NCBI GenBank assembly: GCA_965113315.1
Contig: OZ220367.1
DNA length: 64,000 bases
Reading direction: 5' to 3' (one strand)
Source of the DNA: Podarcis vaucheri
Lineage: Eukaryota
Shown: positions 15,401 through 49,523 of the stretch, in pieces
Position numbering within the stretch: the first letter of the stretch is position 1
Layout: each line of letters begins with the position of its first letter
The notes under the pieces: generated by a model
Databases searched by the model: none
What the model saw: only the letters and a program-made list of their open reading frames with translations
What the model was told of the DNA's origin: nothing
Translations under genes and position numbers: made by a program

Positions 15401-18400
15401 AAAATAGTTTAGCTGCTGTATTTCAGCTTGCCTCACAGAACTTTCCCCACCTTTCCTCCTTCTGTGTGCTGTTCTGTGGGGGGGGGGACATGCAGGAAGA
15501 GGACAGGCTTCACCTAAAGGTAAAGGTACCCCTGCCCGAACGGGCCAGTCGTGTCCAACTCTGGGGTTGCGCGCCCATCTCGCTTAAGAGGCCAGGGGCC
15601 AGCGCTGTCCGAAGACACTTCCGGGTCACATGGCCAGTGTGACAAGCTGCATCTGGCGAGCCAGCGCAGCACACGGAAACGCCGTTTACCTTCCCGCTAG
15701 TAAGAGGTCCCTATTTATCTACTTGCACCCGGGGGTGCTTTCAAACTGCTAGGTTGGCAGACGCTGGGACCGAGCAATGGGAGCGCACCCCGCTGCGGGG
15801 ATTCGAACCGCCGACCTGACGATCGGCAAGTCCTAGGTGCTGAGGCTTTTACCCACAGCGCCACCCGCGACCCATAGGCTTCACCTAGCTAGAGCCAATT
15901 TTGGGGGGCATGCAGGGAGAGGACAGGCTTCCCCTAGCAAGACTAATTCTTCTTCAGAAGATATACTGTCAGCTTCAGTTAAATAGAGAAAATAGCTAGT
16001 AATTATTTTCTTTGCATTTTTGAGGGTCCAGAAAAACCATAGTGTTATCATTCTTTCAAAAAAGTTTCCTATTCTTCTGGATAATTCTTCCTTCTGTACA
16101 GAATTTATGGCTGCCTAACACTCTCTCCATCAGAGCTGCACAGTGCCCCTTCTTACAAACAAAGGTCACTCATCCCAACCATTACAGCGTTTGGCTCCTG
16201 CTTTATCTTAATGATTCATTCATTTATGGAATGACCTATGGAATGTCCTCCCTCTAGAGCAGCCTTTGTCAAATTAGCTGGGGCTAATAGGAGTTATAGC
16301 CCCAAACATCTGGAGGATACCAGCTTGGTGTAGACTGCCCTAGGAGCACGACTGGTGCTAAAGCGCTGTTGTCATTTTGGCATCAGGTGAAACTTCAATA
16401 TTTCCCCAGCCTCTTTTTTTTGGAGTGAGGAGTCAGAAGTTCCGTCACTTCTGCAACTGAAGAGACTGTAGCACCATGGCCGTTTCCCCCCTAATAAGCT
16501 CCATTTATATATGTTTTTATAAATTGTGCTGCATTGTTTTTGTTCTACTGTAACCCACCCTGGGATCACATGATGAAGGGTGGATTAGATGTTCTCTTAT
16601 ACTGTAAATGAATGAATAGCTCAATATAGTGAGGCAGGCTCTAGTATCTCGTGGATCTTGCCTGTAGGAAATATTTCTTAATTTGAACCATGGAATTATT
16701 AGCTGGTGGCACTGTATGACAATCACTACTCAAGTACCAAATAAGGCCTTTGAAAAGTAAAGCCTGCTCACCCAGCAGTGCTGTGCAGAGCTCTGTATCC
16801 ACACGTCCATCCTCAGTCAAGGCTCCAAACACCAACCCATCAGCCCCATGTTGTTTGGCAAGTCGGATGTCTGCTTTCATCACCTCCACTTCTCGGTCAG
16901 AATAGAGGAAATCCCCCCCACGGGGGCGGATCATCACAAATACAGGCACCCTTATACACTGCTTCACCACTTGCAAAAGGCCTGCAGACAAACATGTTTG
17001 GGACATGGTGTCAGTTTTGTACTGGATTGTTCTATAAGTTGGACAAGAAGTGAAACCTAGAACATGGTACGGAGGAACTTAGGAACAGAGCAAGATGCCT
17101 CATACAAAGGGAGACCACTGAGCCATCTAGGTCAGTTCTGCCTATGTCTGGAGTAGCCAACAAGATGCCCTCCAGACGTTGGTGAACTACAGCTCCAATC
17201 AACTGACCACTGACCATTTAGGCTGAGGCGAGTTGGAGTCCCACAACATCTGGAGAGCCACACGTTCCCCATCCCAGAGCTAGACCATCAGCACTGGGTC
17301 TAAGAGAAGCAAGGGAGAAGAGAACAGGGCAGATGTCAAACCCTTTTTGCAGAATTTGGGAGAAGGGGCTGCTGAAGGAGGGAAGGTGAAATAGGGTGAT
17401 TAAATAACAGCCTGTCTTGCAAAAAGACCAGGAGGGGCTGATGACACAGAAGAACACAAAAAGAGCAAGCAGAACAACAGGTATTTTCTTTCTGTTCCAG
17501 GAGCAGAGGGCCTGGAGGGCAGAGGTCCAAACACTTCTCCACATTGCTTGGCTGCTCAGTACTGCTACATCTTGCAGAGAAATGGTGGATTGGATCTTGC
17601 TTGTATGTGCCAACTCACCTATAGTAGGTGTTGTTCCTCCTTCCATGAGGTTGGCACACAGTTCAAGGCGGCCAGCACCTGCAACAGGGTCACACATTAA
17701 ACCTCTGAATATAAGTGGTTTGCAAGATTTTAACAGAGATCTACATTATGAAGAAACCATGTGGTCCTTGCTATAATCCAACAAGGGAAGTTCGCCCAGC
17801 TCCATCATCATATGTCTTTAGCTGCTAGGCAAAAACCTTCCTCTATAAGCAGGCCTTTGGCCTTTAACTATCTGTGGCCATTTAGAAGTGGGTGGGATTT
17901 TTTTTAAGTATTCCCTCCCTCCTCCCCTTGGTTTTAATGTATCTATGTTGGGTGTGTTAAGGTATGGGGGTGCTGTTTGTTTGTAAGTAGCAACTAACAA
18001 ATTTAAGTAATAAATAAAATAAACCAATGGGTAGGAGTGCTGGAAATTTTCGAGCCAAGAGTGAGATTGGTCACCTGTCCACATAGACTTCAACCCCTAC
18101 TCATGCATTAACTAAGAAAGAAAATCAATTAATAGGTGATTTGAGTATCTCAGCCCATGTTTTATAATGCACTGCAGCAAAACAGAGCAGGACCACTTAA
18201 GTAGTTAAGGCAGCTGAAGACAAGGCAAGTTGACATTTATTCATTTAAATTTGCAGTTTGCCCTACTCTCAAAGGCTAGAGTAATTGGGTTCCGGGCAAT
18301 TAAAATATATAAATGCATATCCTGAATCTATGTGTCACTAACCTAGATCAGAACTTTGGAAGTCTTTACTTACTGACCAGTTTATAACATTTAATATCCT

Positions 18401-20674: not shown

Positions 20675-21140
20675 TCCGCCTCGGGGCCGCTCCGGAGGCG
20701 CGGCGGATGTCGGCAGTTCTGCGCCAAACCAGCCCTGAGCTGAGGAGGAAGCCCCGCCCACCCCTGGGGCCTCGGCTCCCGCGCGGCGGCGGCGCACACG
20801 CAAGACAGGAGGCGCCGTCCTACCTGTCACGTGGCGTCGCGGTCACCGAGTGTGCGGTCGCGGCGCTTCCGGAAATAGCTCGGATTCCTTTCCGTGTCAA
20901 GAGCGAGTCGCTTCCGGGTTGCAGCTTGAGGAGCGATGCTCTTGCGGGCGGCACTAAGAGGGTCTCGGCTGTTGCTGGCCCCACGAGGAACGGGGTCCCC
21001 CGGCCAGGTACGCCAGGGGCGGCGCTTGGTTTCCATAGCAACGGGGACCGGGTCGAAGATGCCTCTTTATCGGCCGAGGGTTGCAAAACGAAGCCACCCC
21101 CGGCGGCTCCTCGTTTCTTAGCCTTGCGAGCAGGCTGAGT
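20430..21140. promoter_or_regulatory. CpG-island bidirectional promoter of CUTC/COX15
   Basis: Start codons are head-to-head and 261 bp apart (20674 minus, 20936 plus). CpG-dense. GC box 20751-20760, GTCACGTGG E-box 20826-20834, ETS palindrome TTCCGGAA 20867-20874, further CTTCCGG near 20911. Confidence 0.85.
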
Positions 21141-24100
21141 ACCTGCTATCACCCTCGCTAAGACACGCTGCTGGGGGAAATGCCAGGAGTTTCCGCCCTT
21201 GTGCATCCTTTGCACTGTGGGAGGTGCTAATCAATGCTACCTCATTTCCACGTGGGGACCTCTAATTATGGGGGGATATTAAAAAAAAACTACAGACTAT
21301 TGCCTGCACCTGTCACAACCAGACACGTTAAAGGGGGCAGACTGAAGACTAGGAGTTTCGGTGACTGCCAAAATATTTCACTTGTATAACCACAGCAAGC
21401 CCTCAACCTATGCGGGGTTACATTCCAGGAATCATGCCTAAATCAAAATTCACATATCATCAAAACACATTAGGTTCAATGGTAGGTGGGATTGCCAAAG
21501 TCTTTTTCCCTGGACGCTTGTCCTCTTTTTAATTATGTTTTAATTTGCCAAGCGCATATAGCTAAATGTGCACCAGTTAAATGCGTAAGTCTCTCTCTAA
21601 TTTTAACAATAGGTGTAATGCTTCATGGTTTTAAGTATTTTAGTATAGGATTTTTTTTAAAAAAGGTACCATACCATGAACTACTCTGGTCCCACCTAGA
21701 TGACAGAGTAGTGTATACATGTTTTAAACAAATAAAATAACAATTATGAATATAACATCACATTTTATTAAATGGTCACAGGCCCTGTAAAAACATGAAC
21801 ACTTTCCCCTCCATATGCTTTCAGCATTTAAATAACATATGAAAACCCTACTGGATCACACTTAGAGTCCATGGAGTTCAACCTCTTTTTGCTAATGGTG
21901 GCCAGCCAAGTGCTTCTGAAGATTCTACAAGCAGGACGCTTAAGAACATATTGAAAATAAAAATAAGTTTTGCTGAGCATCTCAGTGAATAGCTGTTGAC
22001 ATTCCTGTTGTCCAGTTTTTTTGTGCTTGCACCATTGATGATCTGGTCCTTTATCCTTGTCCTTGTATTTTGTAGAATAATGTCTGGCACTTAATACAAC
22101 CTTTCTGATGTAGTGAACACAGGTGTGAACTCTTTACAGCAAAGAGAGTTCATACATCTTGAGTAATGCTCCTCTTCCATGTCAAATGTATGTTTAGTGG
22201 GGTGGCATAATTATAAACAGCCTCCTCACTACCTTCTCTGTCCTCAGCAATGTCAACGGTGGTGGCAGCTCCCACAGAGACGGTCACAACACAGTGTAGT
22301 GTCAGAAGTTGCTTCCCATCCCAGAGTGGTGGTACCACCTGTCCCCAATGCTGTGACCAACCGGGCTGTAGGGCGCTGGCTTCTAATATGCAGTGGTACT
22401 GTGGCCGGAGCTGTGGTGTTGGGTGGTGTCACTAGGTAAGGAAAATTAGCACCTCCTCTTCAAGCCTTTACTATATTTTATTTACCCTTGACACTATGGT
22501 TCTCCAACTGTCATAGATTGTATCTTTCTGCAGCCAGCAGAGATCTTCCTAGGGGCATTGCTTCCTCTTGGTCATGCCAGTGTGTGGGCCTAAACTAACT
22601 TCTGGTATCTCTCTGCCCTTTGAATTCCTGTGTCTACCCTTATTTTATAAATGCATTGTAGATAAACAATGCAGGCAGTAAAAGAAATGTGGGATTAAAG
22701 AGTAACAAATAAATACTTTTTGTACTTACAGTCATAACAACCTTTTGAGGTATGGTAGTTAATTTAGACTATTTCAGAATTTAAAAGGTGTGATTACATA
22801 TATATTTGCATCTAATTGATCACCGGTATGTTTGTGTGTAGTCAGACTTTGCATCTGCATTTGTGTCTGAATTTTCCCATTGTGGCTTCATTCTGCTTTT
22901 CTAGATAGACGGATACACATGCACACACCATTATATCCCACATTGATAGCATCTTCCCTCAATGGTATGTCATTGCTGTTCTTTCCTTCTCAGGCTGACA
23001 GAGTCTGGGCTTTCAATGGTTGACTGGCATCTTGTGCGGGAGATGAAGCCTCCTCGGACACAGCAGGAGTGGGAAGCAGAATTCCAAAACTACCAGCAAT
23101 TCCCAGAATTTAAAATGTATGTGTGGGTTGAGCTAAAGTTCCTAGAGACTAAAATTAAATGGGTGGGGTGGGGAGAGAGAGCCTATTCTACTATCCCAGC
23201 AAAAGGGAAATGAGAAAAAAAGAGTATCTTGAATGCTACTTCTTGATAGAACTTGCCATGGAAAGAGGGGAATGGGCAACTACACTTTACTGCAGGGTTT
23301 GTTGTTGTTTTATAAACCTTCTCTCTGAATCTAACAGCCTGAACCACAACATGACGCTGACAGAGTTCAAATTCATCTGGTACATGGAGTATTCACACCG
23401 AATGTGGGGACGGCTTGTTGGACTGGCTTACATCCTTCCTGCAGCTTACTTCTGGAGGAAGGGTTACCTCAACCGGTCCCTGAAGGGTCGTGTCGTTGCC
23501 CTCTGTGGATTTGTCTGCTTCCAGGTGGGAAAGATCACTGGGACCTTGAAATTGTTAAATGAATCATTAAATTACTCTGCCCATGATAACTGAGATAGAA
23601 CATGAAAGGCATTGATCCTTTGCACACTCCAGGAGCTGATTTGTATGTGATCTTAGGTCTCTGGTGCACAGAAGCTTCAGATCATGGTGCTTGGAGTGTT
23701 GTTAGATCTTAGTTCCTCGAAAGAGAATGTACATGATATTGGCAGGAGCAAAAGTGGTCTTAGTTTCATGCCTCTATGGTACTTTTTCTTTGTTTTGGCA
23801 GGGCCTATTGGGCTGGTATATGGTAAAAAGTGGATTAGAGGAAAAGCCAGACTCTCATGATATCCCACGGGTCAGTCAGTACCGTCTAGCCGCACACCTG
23901 GGCTCTGCACTTGTTCTTTACTGCTGCAGCCTGTGGACTGGACTCTCATTACTGCTGCCGCAGCACAAGGTAAGCAAAAAGTGAGGCAGACTGGGGGCAC
24001 GTATTGAGTCCCAGTTGGGCCAAGAAAGCCTGTACACCAATTGCGCCTTTGGAGGGAAGCACACTGCCACTGTGCAGACCAAACTGCCACTGTATCCTAC

Positions 24101-26822
24101 ATGTGCTCAGCCTGGAAGAGGAAAATTACAAATCTTGGGAAATGTCAAAGAGATAACGTTCCTAGAAACACCACCAAAGCTTACCAGTCAAGAACTCTGT
24201 TAGCACTGACACTCCCATGCATAGAGGGAGCCAATGAACTTGCAGTGGGAGGCACACACTCCTGCATCACATGCAAAACTAGCGCCTGTTGCCAATTCTC
24301 ATATTAGGTAGGGTTTCACTTCTCAGGTAGGGTTTCAAATCCCTTTATGGCGATCACAGCCACTGCTTTGGAGCATCACACGAAAAGGGAGGAAAGGAGA
24401 GCCCACACAACACTGCACCCTCATAGTGCACTTGGTAGGATGGCCTCTTAAGAGGGTAGTTATTTAAGAAAGCATAGCAGGAGAAATGCAGACTGAGAAG
24501 AATTCAGCCTGGCATGAGCTATTCCATTTCTTACAGTGCAGTCTGCCACAACTTCCCCAGTTCTAGCAAGGCCGCATCCTTGCCACAGAAGATATTGCCA
24601 TGCACTTTTGCCCTACACATCCAGGCAGTAGATGCTTCTGGGGCCTGTGGATCTGGTCTTGGGTATGGTGACTTGACAGTAGGATTAAATCAAGCATGCA
24701 GATGCTATCTGGCCGCTTCCAAGAACGCCTGGTGATTTCTATAAAATTTGGTAGATTTGGGTTCATAGATATAATTGGATGTAAGCCATGTCCATTAAGG
24801 GCCATGCAGCATAACAGCTGAGTGAGAAGAGCAGAAGTCCTTGCTGCCTTAGCCATTGAGAGTGAAATAAATACGTTCCTCTTCTGTCAGGAGTCTTATT
24901 GGAAACGTGTATATATGCTGAGCCTATGGAACACTAGTTTCCTTTGCACATACTCCCTTTAGAATATACAGAAAGGCCATTGCATATTCTTGTGATCCTC
25001 CTCCTGTTTTGACAGTTACCAGAAACCCGTCAACTCCTGCGCCTAAGAAGGTTTGCTCATGGAACATCAGGCCTGATCTTTCTCACTGCCCTCTCAGGTA
25101 AAAGTCCCTGTCACTTTTGCACCAATCTCTTTCTTTTGAGAAGCAATAGACAGCATGGTCATGGATATGTGTTTCTTGCTTCATTTCCCATTGGGAGGGT
25201 CTAGACTTTTTCAATTCCAGGTTACTGAAATGCTTCCTCTTCATGCTGGTCAGACAACATCACTGGGAACTGTTTTGTGGCCTTGAGGGAAGGACCTAAA
25301 ACTCTCACCGTGATGGTTTTTAGGTGGCTTGTTCTATTACATTCATACTTACAAGTGTGACAGACTCTCTTCTCTGGAACTCTAGGGGCATTTGTGGCAG
25401 GACTGGATGCTGGTCTTGTATACAATTCATTTCCCAAGATGGGGGAACGCTGGATCCCTGATGATCTCCTTGCCTTTTCCCCAAAGTTGAAGAACATATT
25501 TGAGAATCCCACAACCGTGCAGTTTGATCACAGGATTCTGGTATGTTTCTTCCTCTTTATGCTCTTAGATAACACCTCTTTTTTAATTTAAAAGAAGGCC
25601 GTTCTTGGGTTTGTGTTCATTCCAGGTGGCAGTGTAACTGGGAATGTGGGAATGCAGGCCCCTTAACTCAGAGTAGAGCACTTGTTTGCATGCCTAAAGT
25701 ACTGGTTTCCATCTCCACTGTCTCTAATTAAAGGGTGCAAGTTACAAAGGGGGGGGGGTTAGTCTAAACATTAAGGAGAACATCATGATGACATGAGTTT
25801 TTTGAAAGAGGAGCAGACTGTCCCAGAAGTGATGGACTCTTTTTCAGAGGCTGGATTGTCAGGGATGCTGTAGTAGTGAGGTTCCTGCATTACCTTTGGA
25901 CTAGATGACCTTTTAAGATCCCTTCCAACTCCACTTCTAAGCCCTTTGTTGTCATTGCAAAGCTTCTCTGGTTCCCTCACTGGATATTTACTCTTTTCCC
26001 TTTAGGGAGTTTCCTCTGTCGCAGCCATTACAGGTCTGTACCTGTTTTCCAGGAAGATTCCTCTCCCACGGAGGACAAGGATGGCAGTTGCTTCCTTACT
26101 GGCTGTGGCATACCTCCAGGTATTAACTATGCCCTTTGAAACACCCTTTTAATTGTCACTTAGTAGTGTCCTCTGATGGAATGGCAGGTTTCCTCTTCCT
26201 TCCAGGTAGGTGCCTGCCTTCTCGTCACTGATAATGCTATCTTGGTTGCTGGTCCCAGGCATTTAAAACTGAAATTGGTGGGGACCAATTTTTATTTATT
26301 TATTTATTTGGCTTTGACGAACAAAGGGGGGAAATAGAGCTGCAGTCGTGCTCTTCTGTGGAAATATTGCACAGTGCTATGGTCACTGCCCTTCTCTGCC
26401 TTCTGGGTTTAAACTGAGAAGGCAAAGGGGGAACATCAGTACAGTTTCATTAGCATTTTATCATGAAGCACTATGACAGCTACCTCATCCTGTAGCAGGT
26501 TATTTACAGTGGGAGAGAGACGGAACATATAAAAATCCCTGTGCCAATTGCTTATGAAGCTTCTTGTGTATAATTCTGTGCTATAAGAATACGATGCAGA
26601 TGTATTGGCACATACTTCTACATTTCAGGTATACTGGTAAGCAAACTTTGCTTACGTCTGAAACTTCATTTTATTCTTGCTCCTCTGCAGGTCACCCTGG
26701 GCATCAGCACACTTCTCCTGTATGTCCCAACTCCTTTAGCAGCCACTCATCAATCAGGTTCCCTGGTACTGCTCAGTGTGGCGTTGTGGCTGATGCATGA
26801 ACTGAAGCGGATCCCGAAATAA
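20936..26822 (+). CDS. COX15: Cytochrome c oxidase assembly protein COX15 (heme A synthase), 9 coding exons, about 406 aa
   Basis: Exons: 20936-21007, 22248-22435 (alternative in-frame acceptor at 22221), 22994-23116, 23338-23524, 23802-23969, 25016-25097, 25386-25540, 26006-26119, 26691-26822. Arg/Leu-rich mitochondrial presequence; motifs [57 protein letters not shown]. Confidence 0.97.
25805..25940 (+). mobile_element. CR1 LINE 3' remnant in COX15 intron 7
   Basis: ttggactagatgacc…cccttccaactc CR1 terminal motif. Confidence 0.6.
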
Positions 26823-27357: not shown

Positions 27358-28639
27358 AAAAGTTTCTCAATATTTCTCAATATCTCAGTATTTTAAAACT
27401 GACTGTTCTTACAATGTCCCTATGCAATGTACCTTCATAAGAAACTGCTGCAGCAAACCAAAGGCTCCATTAAGTCCATCATCTTGTTCTCAGTGGCCAA
27501 CCAGATGCCTGTGGTAGCTTTCAAACAGGCACATGAGTGGGTTGATTTGGAACACGTTTCATTAACATCAATATCCACAAAGGATTTTTTCTGGGGAGGG
27601 TAGGGGGGAGTAAATGCTGCAAATGAGTAAATAAACATAACTAGCAGCAGAGAACATATCTAACAATTCTGGTGGATCAGGTGACGTTCCTAGACTTGGG
27701 TAGACCCCTGAGAAACTTGTATTACACATTTATCCCTTTCCTTCTCAGTGAGTTGACCTGCTACAATGGGTAGATGGCTTTTCACTCAGTGCTGATTCTT
27801 TCCTGGGCAGTGCTGCTACACTCAACTTCACAGTCTCCCACTTTGCTTCATTTCCCTAAAAAGCCCTATCATGTACCCTACAATTCAGAGTTTACTATAC
27901 TACTGCGGTTCCCTACCGCTGCCTCCCAGCAAAATGAGCCTAACATGGAATCAGCCCCAGCCCAGCCTGCTTCAATATAGGTATAATTATGGCAGATTGG
28001 CAGCAGAGTATCCTTTAAAGTGTTTGCAGATGCTGGGAGGGACATTTTTTGCTATGAAATGTGACTTTGAAAGATGATGGACTACTTACTGTCTTTGCTG
28101 CTACCTTTTTCTTTTATACATTACTTGCCAGTATTGGATATCTGACTTCTTTTCAGTGGGGTAGCATTCATTTCACAAGCAGTGAAGACCGGCATTAAAG
28201 GCTTTAAACCAAACCAAGAGCGGAGACACAGGTGTTTCACTCAAGTATTAAATTGGCTAGATCTAGTTTCCTTAATGTCATCCATTGCTTCATTCATTAG
28301 GTAGAAATTCATTAGGTAGAAATCAATGAATGTGCTTAGTGAGAGCCAGGATACTGAGGGGATGGGTGTCAGAAGGAGAAGGAACTGATACTGGTTTCTA
28401 TGTATTAGTAATGTTGCAGTAATGCAACATTTTTATACATAACATCATATTCGTAAAATTTTCTGATCAGCTTGTTTTCTGTACACCAGTTAGAGGAGTT
28501 TTTGTATTTTTTAAGAGTTATAGAAATGGCCTAAAATGGATAGAAACTCTGAAAGGTTGGAAGGGTAAGTCTTCTCACAAAATCAAGGTGGAGATTGGTG
28601 CCTGCACATTTTTGTTCATATCTGGGTCTACAAATTCTA

Positions 28640-29250
28640 TAACCTTTCTGTAGAGCGGGGCGGGGGGAATAGAAACCTGTAAATCTGGTGATCATGGCTC
28701 ATTAGAGGGAGCAACTACCCCAACCCCGGCGGACGCCTATACGATGCCCTGGCCTGCAACGATTCGAGTAAGATTCGACCTGCCTTCTCCGCTGCTCGCA
28801 ATACACCCTCCGAGGCAGCAGGGGGCGGTACGACACAGGCAACTCCATTCGGAACCGAGGCTCCAAAACACGGGGTCGCGAAGAGGGAAAAACACCGGGA
28901 GGGCGCACGGAATTCTGATTGGTTGCGGACCGGGCCAGAAGCGAAGGAAGCGACCGGCGTAGGGGCGGAGACTCACTCTTCTTGCGGTCTCGGCGGCGGC
29001 GGTGGCTTCTTGTCCTTCATCCCGTCGGTCGCTCCCAACCTGCCTCGCTATGACGGCGCACAGCTTCGCGCTGCCGATCATCCTCTTCTCGGTCTTCTGG
29101 GGGCTCGTGGGAATCGCCGGGCCGTGGCTCGTGCCCAAGGGGCCCAACCGCGGGTGAGGCTCCCCGCCCGCGCAGCCTCCGCCCGCCCGATCCATCGCCA
29201 GGTCTCACGGTCATCGCCATCGCCAAATAGATCAATATATGCATTGTGAT
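28640..29250 (+). promoter_or_regulatory. CpG-island promoter of ATP6V0E2
   Basis: CpG-rich stretch covering exon 1, with GC boxes and a reverse CCAAT (ATTGG 28918-28922). Confidence 0.75.
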
Positions 29251-30748
29251 CTATGATTGCGAGGGAAGGGTGGTGGTGGTCCCTGCTAAAGGCTTTGAGA
29301 ATATCTGTATCTAGATAGAAGAATAGATAGATAGATAATGTGAGAATGACCTATATATCCAAAAAGATCACTATATAGAGATACTGATATTTTGGGAGAT
29401 GACATGACACACACAAAGACTTTAGCAGGCACCAGCACCCGCTTCCCCCGCAAGTGCGACACTCGCAGGCTTTCCTTCTCCGCAGCCGCCTTTGGCCTTG
29501 AAGGCGGCCTGATCCACGGATGCTGTGAATGGGACTCCGCATCGCTTCAGACTGCCAAGTGTGTGTGGGGGGGGGGTCACATTTATGAATGCTCCATCGC
29601 GTTGGAAACACCAACGACCCTGCAAATAGCAAACTAGTATAGCAGCCAAAGGGCTGGGCTAGGGTATTTTTCTCTTATGAACACGGTATATAGGAGTCGG
29701 GGTGTGGGAGCAGGGAGGAAGAGCGTTGAGGAGTGCCTGATCTGGGAATCCTTTCTCCTGTGTGACCCCCTTGATTGTTTCAGTAACAGTACAATCCTAT
29801 CCATGTCTACTCAGAAGTAATTCCTAATATATTCAGTGGGGTTTACTCCCAGGTAAGTAGGGTTAGGATTGCAGCTTTACTCAATATTTTTTCTTTTTCA
29901 TTTTTTCACTTCACAGAGTGATTATTACCATGCTGGTGACCACAGCCATTTCCTGCTATCTCTTGTGAGTATTGCATAGGGGAGATAGGTTGTGGGTGTA
30001 GGGCTGGGTTGTACCCAGCAGGAAATCAACCACCCTCATAACTTTATCTAACTGGCTTCTTCCTGAATATTGGGAATCTAGGAAGGAATCCCAAATAGAA
30101 GAGGCTTTCCTGTATACACCACCATGGAGATGCTCAAGCCAGGTCCTTATTCTACACATAGGTGCATAAACAGCCTGCCTCTCTCTCATAAAATAAGCTT
30201 TTGGGTAATATTGGATCATGGTACACTGTCTCTTCCAATATGTCCTAGCATCATTCATGCATGATGCTCCCAGGACCCCATATATGAACAAGGAGTGGAT
30301 TTTGCATACCATAACAAGCCTTAGACCATCTCTGATCATACACCAAAGCACTAGATTGTTCTAGCTGCCCTAACATCCTGTCTGGCTCAGCTGTTATGCT
30401 AAGCTAGACACTCTCAGGCATAATGCACCAGGGCAGATCTTATCTCCTTGTAGTACATTTAAAGAACTACAAGACCTTGCTCCCTAGATTCTATATCCCT
30501 CCTACAGTGATACTGTCCTCTTTATAAGAATAACTGTTACTTGCAAAAATGACCTAGCAGTTATTTGCAAAATATGACCTTTTTGTATTTCAGCACTAGT
30601 GCAAAAGGAGTTGTGATCCAGTTTATATGTCTCCTTCCTATCTTTCCCTTGCAGCTGGCTTATAGCACTCCTGGCCCAGGCCAACCCACTGTTTGGACCC
30701 CAGCTGAAGAATGAGACCATCTGGTATGTGCGCTTCCTGTGGGAGTGA
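29050..30748 (+). CDS. ATP6V0E2: V-type proton ATPase subunit e2, 81 aa, 3 coding exons plus a non-coding 3' exon starting at 31270
   Basis: Exons 29050-29153, 29917-29964, 30655-30748 (104+48+94 = 246 nt) give [81 protein letters not shown]. The termini MTAHSFALP and WYVRFLWE are e2-type rather than e1-type. CpG-rich promoter upstream; AATAAA at 32038-32043. Confidence 0.95.
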
Positions 30749-32200
30749 ACTGGACCACTATCAACCAATTCAACAGGTACTTGCTCTATCCAGTGCTACC
30801 TAACCTACCTTACTAACACACAAATACATTAGATGCAACTCATTAATAGCTTGTAAGAAAAAGGAATCTATTTGCTTCCAGTTTACAAAGATTCCCTTCC
30901 TTGGTTCCTTGCCTGACTCACCTGTCAATGGCATAGCCCAGGGATGGGGAACTTATGGTTCTCTAGACCTTATTGGATTCTGACTCCTATTAGCCCAAGC
31001 CAATATAGCCAGTCAGGGATCATAGTCCAGCCACATGAGAATCATAGGTCCCATCCCTGGCTTAACCAATAGAACCAGAAAGGTACCTGTAATCTGTCTC
31101 CAATAGTGTTGCCACTCTGTGGTTCTATAGGACAGGTCACTTTCTCATTGTCTGTAAAAGGTAGCTATGGTAAATCTCACTGAAAGGGCAACAGGTTGAT
31201 TGTTCCCAGATATCTTCTATCCTGCTGGGGTAAGGTGAATACTAAGAAATCTTTTTCTCTTTTTCCTAGGCTTCCTTCTGATGCTAGATAACAGCTCCAC
31301 CCCTTGTCCTTTCCAGTACTAACTCAACGGATCTTTTGTTTGCACTCTAAATTTCCCCCCAGGAGTAGGGTCAGGACCCAAACATATGGACCATATCACT
31401 TGTTTAGCCATCTCCCACCTGTTTTAATTGATGCATCTTGGTGGCATCTGCTCTTGGGTTTGATGTTGTAACTAAATGTCCCTCTCTTGGCAGTTAGGGA
31501 AAATGTTAGGGAAATTTTGAAAGTCCTGTAATGAATGCTAAGGCTGAATAATTGCTGATGGAGCTCTGGAACACCCTCTTGGGCAAGATACAAGACACCT
31601 TCCTTACTTTTACATGGTGATGCTCGCAGAATAGATCTGTTCTCTCCCTATCTTTGTCCATTAGCAGTGAGGCTGCTGCACTAAGATACATCTGCCTAGA
31701 ATTCCCCCTTCCACTATTATTTATAATGTTGTGTATTTGTATTTATTGAGTGTAAACTGGTATCGTGAAAATAATTTTTTTTAGTATGTGAGCTTTCTTT
31801 GTCTTCTGTTAAAGAGATCTGATATGGGGCCCAGAAGTGCTTCAAAGTCAGCTAGGGTAATACTCCAGCTTCCATCCATAGCATCTAACTGGTATTGGGC
31901 TGAAATCAAAATTGGTGTGTGTTTCCTGACAAGGAGCACTTCAGTAAACTATCCGGGTGGTGTAAGCAACTAAGCCACTGCAAATTTCCAGACTAGGATT
32001 TATGATAGCAACCCTATTGTGTTCAGGACCATACAGCAATAAAGCAAGTTCTTTTCCTTAGGCCTACAATTGTAGATTGGTTCTCATTCTTGAGCAAAGG
32101 GGAGAAATTATGGTTTTTACAGCTAGTAGTGATCTACACCAACCAACAAGCTTCCAGCACAAGCAGCATCAAGAAACTCTGTTTACACAGTTCAGCATAA

Positions 32201-33017: not shown

Positions 33018-36000
33018 TCAGGAGGCTGCCTCCTGTGCTGGCAGCGGCACCACCTCTGCTAGCCACAGCAGGTCCAGCTGTGCCACGTGCAACTGCTTCT
33101 GGTGGATGCGGCGCAGACGGAAGAGGTAGAGTCCAATTGCAAGCATCACCACAAGAATGCACACAAAGAAAAGATAGTGGTTATAAACAAAGGAGAGACG
33201 GAGCCAAGGGCTGCGAGGTTGGTGGATGCTCTCCTGGCGGAGATCCCTGAAAAACAAAGAAAAATCAGTCTGATGTTGAAATGTGAAGCTGCGCTAAGCT
33301 TGAATCTCTTGCAACTAGCAGACAAAGAAGCATTCCAGATACTGCAGGAAGTATGATTCCCAAATACCTGGCTTTTCTCAGGCCTATGCCCTACAGACCA
33401 TTTGTAAATAGATGAGAGGTGTCAAAAACTTAGGTTTTAGTTTTTTAACATTTAAGACACCATGTTGCCTACTGATAAAGGATCAATTTCCTTTTTATGC
33501 AGGCTCTGTGCTTCATTGAGAGTGCATTTGATGTCTCTCCCTTAGGTACCTCTTAAAAACATACCAGGTCTCTGCATGCATCTGCCTTCTCCTTTTCTGT
33601 TTTTTCAGAAAAGCAGTGCTGGCAGATCACTTGCTTTCTCAAGTTTAAAAAATGAAACTTCAGACTTTAAACACAGAGTACTGAACTCTTCCATGTTTCA
33701 AGCTCAATCCTATGCATGCTTATTGAGAGTAAGCCCTCCTCATCTTGAACTCTGTGAAGCTTACTCCCAAGTTCACATATTAAGATGACCGAGCACTCTA
33801 ATTAGGGCTAGAAAACCGGCATTTTACTCCTAGTCAAGCGCCATGGTCCAGTTCTTTACTGAAGACCTTGTTTGAAAGACTGATTCTGAAGTAACCAGAA
33901 GAACTCTACCACTCTTAAGATGAGAAAAGATGCAGTGGACAGCAATTTAGATTACCTGAGTGGCAGGAAGCGAGTTTTATAGAGAATGGCTCCCAGTGTC
34001 CATTGTACCTCACGATCATACACCAACTGGGCTGTGCGCAGACCAGAATAATCCTTGGGGAAATGAAAGCCTTCGTGCAGGACTTGGTGCATCCATGCTG
34101 ATTTGAAGCACTGGTACCTGCAAGCAGAGAATAGAGACTCGATCACAAATACGCTGGGCTGAGGCTCATCAGTTGAGAAGACTGCTGGGGGGCAATCTTA
34201 CCCCCACCCCTTCACCATCCATGGAAGAAGAGTTAAGGACCAAGCACATTCTCTGTGAAAGGGAAGAATGGATTCTTACTTGACACGGTGCAGATCTGCA
34301 TGTGCTGAGTATAGGTGGTCTCGGAACCTCTGGGTCAGTACGGACCAGCTCAGGCTGCAATAATCCTGGAAGGAGGCAAAAGACATGAGTGGGCACAGAA
34401 ACAACACCCCCTATCCTGGCAAAGTGGTCACATATTCTAGAGTCACCTGGGCAGCGCGTGTGAACGTGGGCATGTGGTACAGTCCTCCCAGGCGCAGCAC
34501 ATCTTCGGTGCAGTAGTAGAATTCAGAGAACCCATAGAATTCGCTGTTAACAAAGTCAATCGGTGCCTGATAGGTGTTGCGCAGAGAGACTGTGGTTCTG
34601 TTGTCTCCCGCCAGCAGGAGGCGCACTTGCTTCGCACACGACTGCCAGTCCCCCTGGCCCTTGATGTGCAGGGTCTGGCTGCCATGCTCCACAACATCCT
34701 CCAGTCCCACAGGCAGGCAGGGGTCCAAGACAGGCACCCCAGCATTTGCGCCAAGCTGCTCACCATGCAACCTGCAACGAGAGCCTAAGCTTCAGGATTG
34801 GGAAAACACAGACATCCCCAGCGGCAAGTTATGATCGGTGAGTTCTTCTGTGCCACCCCGAAACAGGCTAGAGGTATGCATGTGGACCATCAAAAACTTC
34901 TCCCATTGACCTCATCACTCAGGAAGCCTGCCTTCTACAAATAAACACACACCCTCTCCCAGGATGCCACACCTTGAACTTCTGGGGGCAGTGGAATCCA
35001 GAGCTGCCTTTAGCCAGGCCTTTTGAAACCTGGCAGCATGAGGACATCACCTGTTGTGGGTGATGGTCTGATTCAGCACCAGCTCTTCATAGCGCTGCCG
35101 GGCGTAGTTGCCCCCAAAGCCCAGGAAGGTGCTGACGTAGACTCGGTACACGTGCTTCGTGTGTTGCATGTCACAGCCAAGGTTGAAATCAGCAAGCAGG
35201 CTCTTGGCAGCTTCCTCCTGTCAGTAACAGAGGGGAGGGTGACAGGGGGAGGGAGAGCGGGAGTAAGAAACAGGGCCCAACCTAGACCATAGCACATATT
35301 TCCTTCCCAAGCTACACACCTCCTGCGGGGAAGAGAAGGACGTGGAAGTCGGCACCTCATAGGCGATTTGCAGAGAGGCACCTCCCATGTCCAGGATCCC
35401 AACGGTCCTCTTTCGCACCAGGGTTTCTTCCTGGCCAGCCAGGGTCACAGAAATCACTGCATCTTCCTCTACAATCGCAGAGGGAGGGAGAGAAAGAGAA
35501 AGAGAAAGAGAGAGTTGCCAAAGCAATGGAAAATGGAGATGGAAGATGGCACATCCCCATACCTCTTGGGCTGAACACTAGAAATGTCTACAGTTTGGGG
35601 GGCGGGGGGGGGGGGACAGACGTTCAGGAAGAACTGGGGATCAGATCTAGTCTCTCTTGCTCACCTTCACTCCTGCTAAACTGCAGAATGGGAAGGGGCC
35701 TTAGTTCAGGTCATGTGGGAAAGCCAATTCTCCATTCCTGCTGGGAATCGACCAAACTGTGCTGGAGATTCCCTCCCTCAAGAGGGAACTGAGCCAAAAA
35801 AGAAAACTTCTACCTACCCATTCAACTCCACTGTCCCTTTCCCGCAGTCTCACCTTCTTCGTGGTCAAATCTTCCCAATACAAAGTTGATGCCTATCCAA
35901 GAATAGACTCCTGGGAAATTGGGGTTGGGGGAAGAAAGAGAATCAAGAGCAATGTTGGGTTCCTTGAAGGTACAGGACTTGAGTAGCACCCTGTGAAGTT

Positions 36001-39000
36001 TGAGGGGAGGGAACAACCCCAGGGGACAGGCACCGCCAACAGCAAGTTAAGCTGGTGTAACAGCTAGCTAAGCCCCCAGATCCTGCGCAGTGCTGCCTCA
36101 CTACCTACCTTCCCCCCTCTCTCCCTTCACCCTTTGCCAAACTCCCTAAGATGATGATGATGATGATGATAATAATTTTTTTATACCCGCCCGCCCAGCC
36201 AAGGCCGGGCTCAGGGCAGCTAACAAGCAATAATAAAAACAAGTTGAATGAATACAACTTAAAAACAAGATTAAAATACAACATTAAAATATTGAAACAT
36301 TAAAATATTAAAATGCAGCCTCATCACAGTGATGATGGAGTGAGCGAGCCTTTCTGGCCCAACACCTACCTTCTTGCTTCCCAGAGATCACTTCTGCCTG
36401 TGATTCTGAGAAGAGGAAATCAAATTCCAAGGGCACATCCCTCACCAGGTCCGCCAGGATGGCCGTCTGCTGCCTGCGAAGATCCACAAGCAGACAAACT
36501 GAGCAGCTCCCATTTCTTTCTACTGAAATATAATGAACCCCCCTCTCCAGTGCTCCTTTGCCGAATGGTCAAGATGTCTAAACAGCAGGCTCCACCTCAT
36601 TTCAAAAACCCGTCCTTTTGTCCCCCTGTGCAAGTCGCCCTTCTCACTTGGTCTCTTTCCAGCCATGAATCCGCAAACACTCACACAACTTCATAAGCAG
36701 GACTTAATTTTTAGCTCCACTTGGGGTGGCGATGACCCATTGCTCACTATCAAGTTAGGGAACCCTGTGTGGGAATGTTGTGGATAGTGGGAGAGGATAT
36801 ATTGATTAAATATTATCCTTCCTCAGTCACGTTAGTGAGCTAGTCTTCATCCCCATCGTTCAGCCCGGACACTGAGGTCCAGCGCCGAGGGCCTTCTGGC
36901 GGTTCCCTCACTGCAAGAAGTGAGGTTACAGGGAACCAGGAAGAGGGCCTTCTCAGTAGTGGTGCCCGCCCTGTGGAACACCTTGACACCTGAAGGCAGC
37001 CCTGTTTAGGGAAGTTTTTAATGTTTGAAGTTTTATTCTGTTTTTAATGTTCTGTTGAAAGCCACCCAGAGTGGGTGGGGAAACCCAGCCAGATGGGCGG
37101 GTAGAAATAATAAATTATTATTATTACTATTATTATTATTAGCAGAGCACATTCCCTTGCACATTGCTGGAAGCTAGTTGATGGATTTGTTAGAATCATT
37201 TGAATTGAGCAATCCAGTCTGGCTTGTCCAGATTGGATTGTTCCTGGTAAATTTCCCCTTTAGTTCCCTCTTAAAAACAATAATGACATGACAGTCTTCT
37301 TTTAAAAGTAATGATAAAGTTTACTTACATTCAGTTCACAGTATTGTCCTGAAGGCAGGCTTTATTTTGTAGTCACAGTTACAGTTGTAGAGAAAAGAAG
37401 TCTGAGCTAGGCCTCAGACTTTCTACCTTGTGGCTTCCATCCTCTGTAAGGAGGAGCCATGTGCTGCTGGCTAAGAGCCAGCAGGAGTCACAAAAGAGCA
37501 GCGAAAGAGGAAGATGGCTGCATGACTGGCCCTTTTATAGGGTCTGCTAGGGTCACACCCATCTACCTGGTCGCACACAGGGGGAGGATGCTCCAGAGCA
37601 GGTATGACAGGAAGTCCTCCCTGTTTGGAGCAACATTCCCCTGTGCGTCCACTCTAGGAAACAGGAAATGTTGCATTTGACTGATACAGTGAAGATACAC
37701 CCCACACCCTGTCCCTTTGCACTTCAGGATGCAACTCTACCTGTAGCTCCAAGAGGCCCAGCAGTTCCTGCTCCCCAGACCCAAGCCTACTCTGCTCAGG
37801 TCTTGGAAAAATATAGCTCACTCACCAGTCAGGCAGCAGCCTCATTCCTGCAGTACACAAAATGTAGAGGGGAGTCTCCTTGTGCTTTGTACTGGGCACA
37901 TAGGCAGCAGCAAAGCTGAGCAGCGGCCTGATGTAGTCACTAGCTTTGTCTGGAGTGGCTGCCAGAGTAGAGATCCCTGTACAATGAAAAGGGAATATTC
38001 CCTCAGCTGGCATCTCTACAGAACAACTGTGCCCACCTCCAGGTGCTTGGTGCTTGTGGGTTCACAGCCACCAACAAAAAAGGCATTTGGAAATCTCCAA
38101 ACCTGGCTTGATCTTCTTGACAACAGGCTGGCCGTTACGGTCTCGCATCTGCCGGATGTCCAGCAGGTCGTGCGGATTCCCATTGTGTGGTGGCCAAAAG
38201 TATACAAAGACCCGGGACCCACTGCTCCCGCAATCAATAACCACCCCGTAATTCAGAGATGGGTTATTTGTGTCCGTTGCCTCCAAGGTATGAAACCGTT
38301 CCAGGTACCTGCAAGGGGAATGAGGAAGATTTGGAGTTAAGAGTTAGAGACCAGACCAGTCTTCACACCACTAAAATAAAAATAAAAAGGCAGATCCAGC
38401 ATTCCATAGAACGCCTGCTCTGGTTTTTCAGAGGCTGTCTATTATTGCACAACAGCAATAATAGGAATTACAGGAACACAAAATGCCTATATCACTTCTC
38501 CATAAATGCTTCAAGCAATGCTGACCCAGCATGTGCATCCAGTCCCTGCGGAGGCTCTCGTTCCCCCTTCTAGAAACCAGATGAAAGTTATTGGAATCCT
38601 CCTAGGCACTGGATTCAGCTCCCCAGGAACCGGAGAACTGAAGCAGACATGCCAACGCACCCACTTTGTGCCATTTCATCGGTGCAATCAGAAAACAGGA
38701 CTGAGAGGCCACAGCATGTCCAGCCATTAAGAAGAAAGCTAACCAAATTAGTGGGTTTTGCAGATCCATTAGACAAAGAATTCATGCCACCACAGTTCTT
38801 ATTGATCCTGCTCCCCTTTCTTGTGCTGAAGGAAATTCTGGCTCAGTCAGCACAGCCTCTGCTACTTCCCTCACCCAGCAGCAGCAGCAGTAGTGGAACA
38901 AAGCAAGGGTTTGAAGAAGGCCATCCCACGGCCAACTGCCATAGGGCCAAATGTTCCAACATCCTGACCTTTGCAGAAGAGGGCATAGATTCCCTGGGCA

Positions 39001-39608
39001 CTCAGCTAGAGCAGCAGCTCTCACAAATGCCACGCACCACCCCAAGTATTCCAGTTGGATTTCCCCATGGACACAGGAGCCAAGAGATGCACAAATACAA
39101 TTGCATCTAATCCAAGAGGGAGGAGAAGCCAGACCTATCACAGACAGAAGGTCAGGTCACAAAAGTTAAGGCATAAGCTACTATATCAGTCTTTGTTTAC
39201 ATCTGTTAATCAGCATTCATGGAAGGAGGAAAGGGTGAAGGAAGAGGAGAAGCAGGAAGACCCAAGGCCTGCCATGTGGTAGGACTACCATGGATGAGGC
39301 AGTGCCTGGCCCTCTAAACTGTGTCAGGTGGGACAAGAAGTTTATCAAAGTCTGAGTTCTAGAGGAGCCATTGAATGTCACATTATTTGAGTACAGTAAC
39401 TGGTAGTCTGTCCCAACAAGAAAATTCTGTCCAGTCCACACCACATTGAAAAAATAAAAGCCATGCAGCTAAATGCTTCTTGTAGGATCAGCTCCGCTCT
39501 TGAAGGAAGAGGCACAAGCATTGGTCCCAGGTCCAGCAATGAACCTGCTGAAGGTAAGCTGGTGTGCATCTGATGAGTGGCTGGGGCAAACCAGCCAGAT
39601 GAGCAGGG

Positions 39609-39642
<34 letters not shown>

Positions 39643-42600
39643 GCCAGGATGGGCTCACCTGGGAATCCTATATATGCCACCTTGAGTTCCACAATGAAAG
39701 AAAAGTAGAATATACATTCCATAATTAATAAATATATTTACTGCAGGATGTAATGCAAATAAATGCTGGGTGTAACTGGATATTATGCAAACAAAAGCTG
39801 CAGCAGAATGCCCTTTTAAAATTAAAGGCAAGTTGCTACCTGCCATAAGGGAAGCTGAGAGAATGTATACAATGTGAATGTATAGTTTAGAGGAAATGTG
39901 AATTTAAAAGTAATTACCAATCTCTCCTTTGGTCTGAAAATGACTTGTTTAAGGTGGTTGTCAAATGCAAATAGCTGGCTTTTGCCAAAACATTTACCCT
40001 ACCTTTATCTTAATGGCCCATTTTAAAGTGATAACATCAACAAGTCTAGACTTGTTAATCTTATAAAGAACCGCAGCTGGAGAGACCCTCTTTAGCATAT
40101 CAAATAAAATTCTGGCTTCAGAGGAAGTACTGTCATTTTCCAGCAGACCATGAGAAGTCTGGTTCAGATTGGGGGATCCTAACTTAGAATCTTAAAACTA
40201 TCTCCTCATTTCTTAAGATACATCTGGGGGACAGGCAGTATTGCCTATGGAAAATCATCAGCTTTCATCCTTGACTTAAAGAACTGTTCTTTGTCATCTT
40301 AAGGACAGAAATGTAAATAATTACTTCCTAGTTTAGTAATTTTTAATTCTTAGTAATCTGCCCAGCATATTTAGCACCAATGAAGAACCAGTTAGTAATG
40401 TTAAGAAGTTTTGTTATATGTGTTTTTTTACCTTTTGTTTTCTTTATGAGTTGCTTGTTGTCTTTTATGCTTTCCTAAAGAAATGGGAGTGCCTGATCAC
40501 CTCATCTGTCTCCTGCGAAATCTCTATGTGGGACAAGAAGCTACAGTTAGAACTGGATATGGAACAACTGATTGGTTCCAAATTGGGAAAGGAGTACGGC
40601 AAGGCTGTATATTGTCTCCCTGCTTATTTAACTTATATGCAGAATTCATCATGCGAAAGGCTGGGCTGGATGAATCCCAAGCCGGAATTAAGATTGCCGG
40701 AAGAAATATCAACAACCTCAGATATGCAGATGACACAACCTTGATGGCAGAAAGTGAAGAGGAATTAAAGAACCTTTTAATGAGGGTGAAAGAGGAGAGC
40801 GCAAAATATGGTCTGAAGCTCAACATCAAAAAAACGAAGATCATGGCCACTGGGCCCATCACCTCCTGGCAAATAGATGGGGAAGAAATGGAGGCAGTGA
40901 GAGATTTTACTTTCTTGGGCTCCATGATCAGTGCAGATGGTGACAGCAGTCACGAAATTAAAAGACGCCTGCTCCTTGGGAGAAAGGCGATGGCAAACCT
41001 AGACAACATCTTAAAAAGCAGAGACATCACCTTGCCAACAAAGGTCCGTATAGTAAAAGCCATGGTTTTCCCAGTAGTGATGTATGGAAGTGAGAGCTGG
41101 ACCATAAAGAAGGCTGATCGCCGAAGAATTGATGCTTTTGAATTATGGTGCTGGAGGAGACTCTTGAGAGTCCCATGGACTGCAAGAAGATCAAACCTCT
41201 CCATTCTGAAGGAAATCAGCCCTGAGTGCTCACTGGAAGGACAGATCGTGAAGCTGAGGCTCCAATACTTTGGCCACCTCATGAGAAGAGAGGACTCCCT
41301 GGAAAAGACCCTGATGTTGGGAAAGATGGAGGGCACAAGGAGAAGGGGACGACAGAGAATGAGATGGTTGGATGGTGTTCTTGAAGCTACTAGCATGAGT
41401 TTGATCAAACTGCGGGAGGCAGTGGAGGACAGAAGTGCCTGGCGTGCTCTGGTCCATGGGGTCACGAAGAGTCGGACACGACTAAACGACTAAACAACAA
41501 CAACAACAACATCCCTCTGGTGTTATATCTATTGACAACTTCCTTTCTTTAGGAACAGCAGACTGGTGTTAATACTTCAAGTCACACATCTAGTCATTTT
41601 GAAATTTTACTCATCTTAAGAGGAGTGGGTATAGGGAAAAGTGAGGTGTCTGAAGTGGGAAGCCTCTTCTCCTCATGGCAGTTCCTTGTGCGATTTAGAA
41701 GTCTGCTAAATCAGGACTTCACACACAGAGAGAGAAAGAGAGAGAGAGAGAAAGCTCTGAACTTTGTACAGATGATGCTGTGGAGAGGGTTTGGCAGCAC
41801 AGTTCTCCAGCTTCTCCTCACATGTTTGCTTACATGTGAAGCCTGAATACCCAAACAGGGACTGTGTAAAAGAAAGTGGGCAAACCAGTTCAAGCAACTG
41901 CTTCTGTGCCAGATACCTCACACTTTCCAATTGCAGAACACCAACTGGCAGCAGAATTGCCAGTCCCTGTGCAAACATACTGAAGAGCATTATATGCGTG
42001 GGTTGGGAATCATTTAAGGGCAAAATTTGGGACTTCCCAGTAGTTAAACCTTGGGTTCTTATGTTGACACGCTGACAGTCCGTTCCCAAATTTCACTAAA
42101 TGAAGAAAGCCAACAGCAGCCCTGTGAAAGCACTGCCCAGCAGGACTAGCGCAGCATCTTCCTCCTTCCCCTCCAGCTTAAAAGGGTTTCAGCCTTTGTT
42201 GGTGGGAAAATGCAGCTGAACTCAGTCCACGTGGCTTCTTCCCATCACTCCCATTTTGCTGTTAGATGGGAACTGTGAAATATGCCCTGCCATTTCCTCT
42301 GCAGTTTTTTCCATCAAGCATCTCCTTTACTACTGCTATATTTGTGTTACACAAAAAATGCAGAAATATATGCCCAATTTTGCAATCCAAGACCAAGATC
42401 GTAGAAGAACAGAGAGGAAAGGAGGGGGATAGAAGGACTTTGTGTGCCACAGAAACTGCCGCCTTGTTTGGTGCCACTAACTCCCCCCTTCCCCCCAGTT
42501 TCTCCAGGAAACCAGATTCTACATTATGCATAGAATGTATAGCAGGGGTGAGGAACCTGTGTCCCCCCCCCCCAGGTGGTGTTGGGACTCCCAGCTCCTC

Positions 42601-44778: not shown

Positions 44779-46450
44779 GTGCTCGCCCCGCAGTCTGTCA
44801 GCTTCCAGTGCGGGTCCCGGGAGGAAGTAGCATCTCTTTCGGCTCCTCCAAGTTGCGGGATGATCCTGGACCCTGAAAAAGAAAGGAAGAGACGGAGCGG
44901 TTAAACCAGGGATCAGCGCCGACCACCTTCCCGCCTCTATCCCCTGAAAGGGCCACAAAATCGGTCCGTTAATTAATGGTCCGCATTTCATCCCATGCTG
45001 ACAGCAGCTTCACAGAGAGAGAGAGAGATGCGCCTCTGGCCGCAGAGGAGGCTCCTCCGCCCGGCAGTGCCGCGGTTCCCCTTCCACACGGGCAGCGCTC
45101 CTTTCCCCCCGCTTCCCCGGGGAGCCGACTTACCGCTTCCTTCGCCCCGCGCTCGCCGTCCGGCGCCACGACTTCGTCGGCCCTTTGCTCCAGCCACGTC
45201 CCCAGGGCGACCGGGCTGGGCGGCAGCCAATGGCAGAGCCCGGGTAAGGTTGACGCAACGGAACCGAGTCGGCCTGGGCTCCGCCTCCCGCGGCGGGCAG
45301 CCAACCAGCTGCGCTTTTCCGAAGGGCACGCCGTGCTGTCCAGGACGGGGCCGATACTCTCCTCAAGTGTCATTCAGTAATTTCCAACACGTCACAAGCT
45401 CTGAGCCAACCCGGCGAGGATCATTCGGGCGGGTTTTCGTTACGTCATGCGTATATTGCCCAATTCGTAGGCCCAAGGGTGGCTTTTCAACGTACACCTC
45501 CTTTTTTGTGTGGGCCTCGTCTTCGCCGGAACGCGCAGGCGCCCTGTTGCCCATTCGCAGCCCCCAGTCAACTCTCACACTGCATGTTTGGTCCACCAAT
45601 GTACAGGCATATTCTTCCCACGGCAACGTCATCACTAAAAGCAAGCCAACCAACATCCACAAACAAACCCCACGCACCACAGAAAACTGCGCAGCCTTAT
45701 TACAAGCCTGTCACTTTGAACGGCAGGCATCGTAGCCAATAATTTTCTCCTTTTCCTCACGTATCTCGAATAAAGCGGAAAAGTAGCCAATCGGGTGAGG
45801 AACGAACGAAAGGTCAAAGAGGTATTGCCCAATAGCCTCTCTGGATGGGCGGGAGACAGGACGGACGTTAGCCAATGGAAGCGAGCGTGAGTCGCAGCCT
45901 ACCAATGGACATTGGCTCGGGGCGGCGCGAAAACCGTCCGCGGCCAATGAGTGACATCCATGGGCGGGGCGGACAGAGCGGGAGCCGCAGGACCGAGTGT
46001 GCAGCCCGCAACGGACTCGACGGCGGTGCCATGGAGCTCGGGGCGGGCGGCGCGGCGGGGCCCGGGCAGCGCGGTGGGGCAGAGCCGGGCCGCCAGCTCC
46101 TCCTGCTGCTGGGCGGGGGCGACGGTGGAGGGGCGGGTTGGGCGTGGCCCGCGGGGGGTGGCGGGGCGGGAGGGACTGGCACGGACACGGAGGCCGGCCC
46201 GGAGCCGGACTACGAGGCCCTCCCGCGGGGCTCCGCCGCCTCCACCCACATGCTCGCAGGGGCTGTGGCGGGGGTGCTGGAGCACAGCCTCATGTACCCG
46301 GTGGACTGTGTCAAGGTGAGAACGGGCGCCGAGCTGCTCTCCGGGAGCAGGGCGGGTGCTGGCGGGGGGCGGGGGGCTGAGACGAGACGCGGGAGTCCCT
46401 GGGCAGGACCTGAGAGCGGTTAACCGGCACACGATCTTCATTAGTGTTGC
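44600..46450. promoter_or_regulatory. CpG-island bidirectional promoter of ENTPD7/SLC25A28
   Basis: ENTPD7 exon 1 (donor boundary 45134, minus) and SLC25A28 ATG (46031, plus) are under 1 kb apart. Multiple CCAAT boxes, CRE-like TTACGTCA 45440-45447, GC boxes. Confidence 0.85.
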
Positions 46451-49400: not shown

Positions 49401-49523
49401 TTTCGAGGGGTACAAGCACGTGTCATTTACCAGATGCCCTCCACAGCCATTGCCTGGTCTGTGTATGAGTTCTTCAAATACATCCTTACCAAGCGAAAGG
49501 AGGAACGATTGGCCGGGAAGTGA
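46031..49523 (+). CDS. SLC25A28: Mitoferrin-2, mitochondrial iron transporter, 4 exons, 362 aa
   Basis: Exons 46031-46315, 47028-47256, 48372-48428, 49006-49523 (1089 nt). Carrier signatures [30 protein letters not shown]; Gly-rich N-terminus; PDYEALP motif. AATAAA at 49938-49943. Confidence 0.97.
48026..48112. repeat. Short palindromic MITE-like repeat family (about 90 bp); other copies near 29787-29875, 33690-33785, 43840-43905, 56845-56920, 57820-57910, 61050-61115
   Basis: tgcaatcct…aggattgca terminal inverted repeats around a tactcagaagtaagtc…cttactcccaggtaagt core. Confidence 0.75.

Follow-up and report, generated by a model that had tools for sequence, protein, structure and literature searches.

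ATP6V0E2 of the lizard Podarcis vaucheri: an intact gene flanked by COX15 and ENTPD7, likely at its ancestral jawed-vertebrate position

The ATP6V0E2 gene and its surroundings

The window analysed here is a stretch of 64,000 nucleotides from Podarcis vaucheri. As read from the exons, its gene order is CUTC (-), COX15 (+), ATP6V0E2 (+, in the following also e2), ENTPD7 (-), SLC25A28 (+) and NKX2-3 (-). For CUTC and COX15, and likewise for an ENTPD, a mitochondrial carrier and a homeodomain protein, Pfam supports the assignment at the level of the family, and the paralogue names ENTPD7, SLC25A28 and NKX2-3 were given because the order in the window matches the table in PMC12019251 (Nat Commun 2025). 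The annotated features are as follows.

16644..17078, minus strand: CUTC, exon-bearing reading frame, head to head with COX15 (PF03932, E 4.8e-22)
20936..26822, plus strand: COX15 coding span, with AATAAA at 27352 (PF02628 in 3 of 3 exons scanned)
28590..29729, no strand: CpG island covering the ATP6V0E2 promoter and exon 1 (observed/expected ratio and window criteria)
29050..29153, plus strand: coding portion of ATP6V0E2 exon 1, running from the ATG into codon 35, phase 2 (reading frame, PDB and PF05493 matches, isoform breaks)
29154..29916, plus strand: ATP6V0E2 intron 1, 763 nt, GT..AG (sequence)
29917..29964, plus strand: ATP6V0E2 exon 2, 48 nt, codons 35-51 (sequence, isoform breaks)
29965..30654, plus strand: ATP6V0E2 intron 2, 690 nt, GT..AG (sequence)
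30655..30776, plus strand: ATP6V0E2 exon 3, codons 51-81, stop codon ending at 30748, followed by 28 nt of 3' UTR (sequence, PDB match)
30777..31269, plus strand: ATP6V0E2 predicted intron 3 in the 3' UTR, 493 nt, GT..AG (sequence; a donor after the stop is likewise found in the fish-type e2 exon L009)
31270..32060, plus strand: ATP6V0E2 exon 4, predicted to be non-coding and to carry the AATAAA at 32038-32043, 3' end approximate (sequence only)
33018..44780, minus strand: ENTPD7 coding span, start approximate, with minus-strand AATAAA at 32201-32206 (PF01150 in 2 of 3 pieces scanned)
46031..49523, plus strand: SLC25A28 (mitoferrin-2) coding span (PF00153; name by gene order)
55957..58646, minus strand: NKX2-3, two coding exons (homeodomain, E 1.8e-20; name by gene order)

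The coding exons of ATP6V0E2 (29050-29153, 104 nt; 29917-29964, 48 nt; 30655-30748, 94 nt including the stop codon) splice to a coding sequence of 246 nt, which translates into 81 amino acids and has no internal stop codon. All three introns (763, 690 and 493 nt) run from GT to AG and have pyrimidine tracts. In having all 81 codons in an unbroken frame, and canonical splice sites, the gene agrees with the ATP6V0E2 orthologue group. The distance from the stop codon to the last donor is 28 nt, and the predicted intron 3 is located in the 3' UTR. Exon 4, the transcription start, the poly(A) site and the splicing itself are predictions. The CpG observed/expected ratio is 0.94 over 28640-29560, compared to 0.16 in the upstream and 0.08 in the downstream flank; the extent of the island was set by 200-nt windows with a GC content above 50% and a ratio above 0.6.

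A sequence-only reading of this DNA had described a complete spliced e2 gene of 81 amino acids with its own CpG island and polyadenylation signal. This description holds, as the exons join, the ratio is that of an island and AATAAA is present at 32038. It had also attributed the absence of the gene from the ORF track to its short exons, which is correct: the coding pieces have about 35, 16 and 31 codons, and the gene was missed because each of them is below the 60-codon floor of that track. The gene is thus "hidden" with respect to the ORF track but not in general, as proteins of related squamates are already listed under the name e2 at NCBI. The lizard ATP6V0E2 is an ordinary, intact and real gene, and nothing hints at an altered function. 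What the model offers is a correct annotation of a gene with exons too short for ORF scans to catch.

Transcription from the CpG-island promoter would yield an mRNA of four exons. The established 50-55 nt rule predicts that this transcript is spared by nonsense-mediated decay, because its stop codon is only 28 nt before the last junction. Judging from the PDB homologues, the 81-residue product is probably the small two-helix membrane subunit e in the V0 sector of the V-ATPase.

Predicted e2 isoforms of mammals, reptiles, frogs, a shark and a fish diverge near residue 74, which is within exon 3, in 10 of 34 rows. This suggests a common internal splice donor in exon 3 that leads to an alternative C-terminus. 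Three metagenome contigs carry e genes that resemble those of vertebrates. A fish-type e2 exon (L009:534-623) has its donor 5 nt past the stop codon, the acceptor phase of a fish-type e1 exon (L011:6821-6907) equals that of exon 3 in the window, and an intronless e1 of mammalian type is found at L001:44-283. The metagenome scan gave 37 loci, and the window's frames for COX15, ENTPD7, CUTC and SLC25A28 had no match in any of them.

The position between COX15 and ENTPD7, which had been read from the sequence before, was confirmed, with SLC25A28 and NKX2-3 following. The stop codon of COX15 lies 2,228 nt upstream of the ATP6V0E2 start codon on the same strand, while ATP6V0E2 and ENTPD7 are arranged tail to tail, their facing poly(A) hexamers being separated by about 160 nt (32043-32201). 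At the place of this small gap, gar and zebra shark have an entire crebrfl gene; nine frames near the gap gave no Pfam match. The interval between SLC25A28 and NKX2-3, which holds nkx3.3 in frog, gar and sharks, contains a CpG-rich stretch (53500-55300) that may be regulatory. In 13 frames from 51.3-55.8 kb no homeodomain was found with Pfam. Altogether 27 frames were scanned with Pfam for relics of CREBRF or nkx3.3, a weak test for decayed genes, and this yielded none, with one chance match.

Two further CpG islands are each shared by a head-to-head gene pair (20500-21500, CUTC/COX15; 44500-46750, ENTPD7/SLC25A28). Another one is found upstream of NKX2-3 (62000-63500), where two long frames have no Pfam match. 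An ENTPD7 intron contains a reverse-transcriptase frame of 347 codons (40450-41493, plus strand; PF00078, E 9.6e-19) with a short-repeat tail, presumably the 3' part of a LINE of the RTE/BovB type. By eye, a GC-rich insertion in a CUTC intron (15518-15875) resembles a squamate SINE, and the exon at 5445-5620 (minus strand) resembles the N-terminal part of ABCC2. The latter is positioned as predicted by the human gene order. The assembly has a gap of 142 N at 3659-3800.

Protein identity and the e1/e2 tree

Exon 1 matches a PDB V-ATPase e2 chain with an E-value of 5.6e-17 and 62.6 bits, while e1 reaches 39.7 bits. The corresponding values for exon 3 are 6.8e-16 and 58.7 bits for e2, and 49.5 bits for e1. 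Matches of this strength mean that the gene model is not due to chance. All five PDB matches are V-ATPase subunits, and four of the five are named e1 or e2. PF05493 was found on the exon 1 fragment with an E-value of 4.4e-05 and 24.3 bits, slightly below the 25-bit cut-off, and also on the homologues. By this profile and the solved e subunits, the protein belongs to the V-ATPase subunit e family.

A tree was computed from 48 named rows, 22 of e2 and 26 of e1 (three of the latter were labelled as e1 in this analysis), picked by hand from 120 that are listed among 201 matches. The window protein falls inside the e2 clade (support 100/99) and not outside, which settles the tree check that had been proposed with the sequence-only reading. 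Its sister is e2 from the skink Tiliqua (97/81), the nearest among the rows used, with 74 of 81 residues identical, in keeping with squamate DNA. When six outgroup rows were combined with 28 named rows, e2 and the window protein again formed a clade (100/99), and a single clade of the window protein with e1 was rejected (p-AU 0.011).

The e1 and the e2 group of the 48-row tree each hold cartilaginous fish, ray-finned fish and tetrapods, and Amblyraja has both proteins. As cartilaginous and bony vertebrates occur in both groups, the duplication is older than the split between sharks and bony fish and thus predates the radiation of jawed vertebrates. Mammalian e2 nests among the other amniote e2 proteins (92/90), so that any second copy is no older than amniotes. 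In the tree with the six outgroup rows, the vertebrate rows group against these (93/95) and e1 itself is not a clade; once the distant outgroups are added, an e1 clade is found in 0% of 200 bootstrap trees. The rows used comprise no e sequence from lamprey, hagfish or amphioxus. Because e1 is not one clade with distant outgroups, the 81 alignment columns by themselves fix neither the root nor the round of the e1/e2 duplication.

Gene order in other vertebrates and the origin of the e1/e2 pair

Of the six non-mammals in the table of PMC12019251, four (chicken, Xenopus, gar and zebra shark) have e2 in the ENTPD7-SLC25A28-NKX2-3 block, with the same relative strands as in the window; for zebrafish and thorny skate the table gives no row for e2. 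On chicken chromosome 6, ATP6V0E2 (+, 22,894,867-22,896,236) is followed by ENTPD7 (-), SLC25A28 (+) and NKX2-3 (-), and the end of e2 is 675 nt from ENTPD7. Xenopus chromosome 7 has an equal block and, in addition, nkx3-3. In gar (LG5) and zebra shark (chromosome 20), crebrfl is located between e2 and the ENTPD gene. Human and mouse, the two mammals tabulated, both lack an e2 row at the ENTPD7 locus. COX15 is absent from this table and the comparison therefore covers the ENTPD7 side.

In its synteny with ENTPD7, SLC25A28 and NKX2-3, the lizard e2 thus agrees with non-mammalian vertebrates. Because chicken and frog e2 adjoin ENTPD7, and e2 of gar and zebra shark is in the corresponding block, the site in the window is likely the ancestral position of e2 in jawed vertebrates. 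The opposite view, that e2 originally resided in a context like human 7q36 and reached COX15 in squamates only, could refer to the human location and to the missing mouse row, but no support for it was found. The neighbour check contradicts it, as e2 in chicken, Xenopus, gar and zebra shark is found in the ENTPD7 block on matching strands and not in a 7q36-like context, and we consider a lizard-specific move extremely improbable.

The sequence-only reading had further regarded e1 and e2 as ohnologues, derived by whole-genome duplication from a block of NKX2, mitoferrin, ENTPD and ATP6V0E genes. This is supported and to a large extent already in print (PMC12019251, PMC6193309). The placement of ATP6V0E1 close to NKX2-5 in that reading is borne out by the linkage of e1, CREBRF, BNIP1 and NKX2-5 in seven of the eight vertebrates tabulated; zebrafish e1 is 28 Mb off on the same chromosome (PMC12019251). 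According to the legend of Fig. 1A in that paper, slc25a28/37, entpd4/7, bnip1, crebrf/rfl and atp6v0e1/2 neighbour NK4 genes at four loci. The paper derives these loci from two genome duplications, the first round separating NKX2-3/2-6 from NKX2-5/2-5l. In PMC8040251, NKX2-5, NKX2-6 and NKX2-3 form one curated ohnologue family, and the supplement rows examined include none for ATP6V0E. The copies of e1 and e2 are thus in paralogous blocks, by the published table and lists.

The ohnologue lists were searched by Ensembl id, two ids being taken as those of human e2 and e1. Both ids are among the 8,184 Amniota ohnologues in the supplement of PMC6193309, where a single gene tree has them as its branches.c and.d; by gene name, the same material gave 0 matches. 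Its pre-1R chromosome file lacks both and assigns the ids of SLC25A28, NKX2-3 and COX15 to chromosome 14. The supplements of PMC7269912 (0 matches) and PMC13489949 (0 in the files searched) gave no usable row, and that of PMC5207668 has ids and no coordinates.

It may be asked whether the two genes derive from a segmental duplication prior to jawed vertebrates instead of a genome duplication. Such an origin would be compatible with a tree whose root is not settled by distant outgroups, with the missing ids in the pre-1R file (PMC6193309), and with lancelet chromosome 3, which has CREBRF, ENTPD4, BNIP1, SLC25A28 and the NK4 gene and no ATP6V0E row (PMC12019251). Nevertheless, it is improbable, given that several neighbour families are duplicated in register at the four loci (PMC12019251), that both ids are in the Amniota list (PMC6193309), and that NKX2-3, NKX2-5 and NKX2-6 are a curated ohnologue family (PMC8040251).

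We thus favour duplication with the genome. An ancestral block of ATP6V0E, CREBRF, ENTPD, SLC25A, NK3 and NK4 genes was likely doubled by the vertebrate genome duplications, and e1 would have stayed with NKX2-5 while e2 stayed with NKX2-3. Read on the NK4 tree as published, the split between e1 and e2 would represent the first round, both second-round sisters presumably having been lost. With respect to the block as first proposed, the older version would also have held nkx3.3 and a CREBRF-like gene (between e2 and ENTPD7, as in gar and zebra shark), and the e2 block of the listed tetrapods would then have lost the latter. The ancestral e2 position and the NK4 paralogon are already published and the lizard adds one more species. 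Human gene order by itself hides the e1/e2 ohnology.

The probable mammalian relocation

Human ATP6V0E2 adjoins ACTR3C at 7q36 (PMC6531610), in agreement with the location given in the sequence-only reading. The human order at the original site, as listed in PMC8522836, is SLC25A28, ENTPD7, COX15, CUTC, ABCC2.

Whether the mammalian gene kept its introns was judged from predicted protein isoforms. Insertions at codon 35 occur in two of 20 mammalian e2 proteins and a divergence at codon 51 in one, and these codons are the junctions of the window gene. Of the remainder, four diverge near residue 74 and one elsewhere, while 12 are collinear and hence uninformative on introns. Among 14 non-mammalian variant e2 proteins, seven break at the window junctions and six near residue 74. 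The breaks at the window junctions indicate that the ancestral introns were likely kept, and thus that the move was likely at the DNA level. This lends indirect support to the earlier proposal of an intron-keeping relocation.

Alternatively, the gene at 7q36 could be a retroposed e2 mRNA which later acquired a promoter and introns while the parent was lost. A frame of 246 nt is easily retroposed, and the many mammalian "e1-like" proteins among the matches may be retrocopies. However, this reading has to account for the three of 20 proteins that break at the two junctions of the window gene, and regain of introns at both sites is improbable on general grounds. We consider retroposition very improbable, and a DNA-level relocation with retention of introns the likely event.

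In the mammalian line, a 7q36-type region most likely received a copy of a self-contained unit of a few kb, comprising the promoter and all four exons, and the original was then deleted, which would leave COX15 and ENTPD7 collinear. Copy-then-loss appears preferable to us, cut-and-paste being the alternative. The move may also be younger than mammals, with monotremes and perhaps marsupials keeping e2 by ENTPD7 and with therians or placentals having moved it. Only human and mouse represent the mammals in PMC12019251, and the 25.4-Mb contig that carries echidna e2 has no assigned position. Such a late move is quite conceivable, if somewhat less probable than an early one, and it would alter the date of the event only. 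On the whole, we are confident that the window holds an intact e2 between COX15 and ENTPD7, likely at the ancestral jawed-vertebrate site, and that the mammalian copy likely left as intron-bearing DNA.

Mammalian e2 is a tissue-restricted e subunit of the brain type. It is tempting but speculative to regard it as a so far undescribed single-gene transposition which, with introns kept, left a block conserved from shark to bird, and with it the compact housekeeping surroundings of COX15 and ENTPD7, and gained the new regulation that made it tissue-restricted. Our search of main texts, with few subscription papers among them, retrieved no report that states or dates the mammalian move, and this move is not a topic of section 6 in PMC12019251.

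When compared to known systems, the lizard gene resembles known ATP6V0E2 (PF05493; PDB 6vq6_e and 6xbw_e) in its length of 81 residues, in both ends and in the positions of the junctions, and six mammalian e2 rows are identical to it at 69-71 of 81 residues. They differ in location, as the human gene is at 7q36 whereas the window gene adjoins ENTPD7. ATP6V0E1 at the NKX2-5 locus has family and length in common with the window gene and is also NK4-linked, but it is identical at only 48-56 of 81 residues and its neighbours are CREBRF and BNIP1. The closest correspondence in gene order is to the atp6v0e2-entpd7-slc25a28-nkx2-3 block of chicken chromosome 6 and Xenopus chromosome 7, which has the order and relative strands of the window, although neither the nkx3-3 of Xenopus nor the crebrfl of gar and zebra shark is seen in the lizard.
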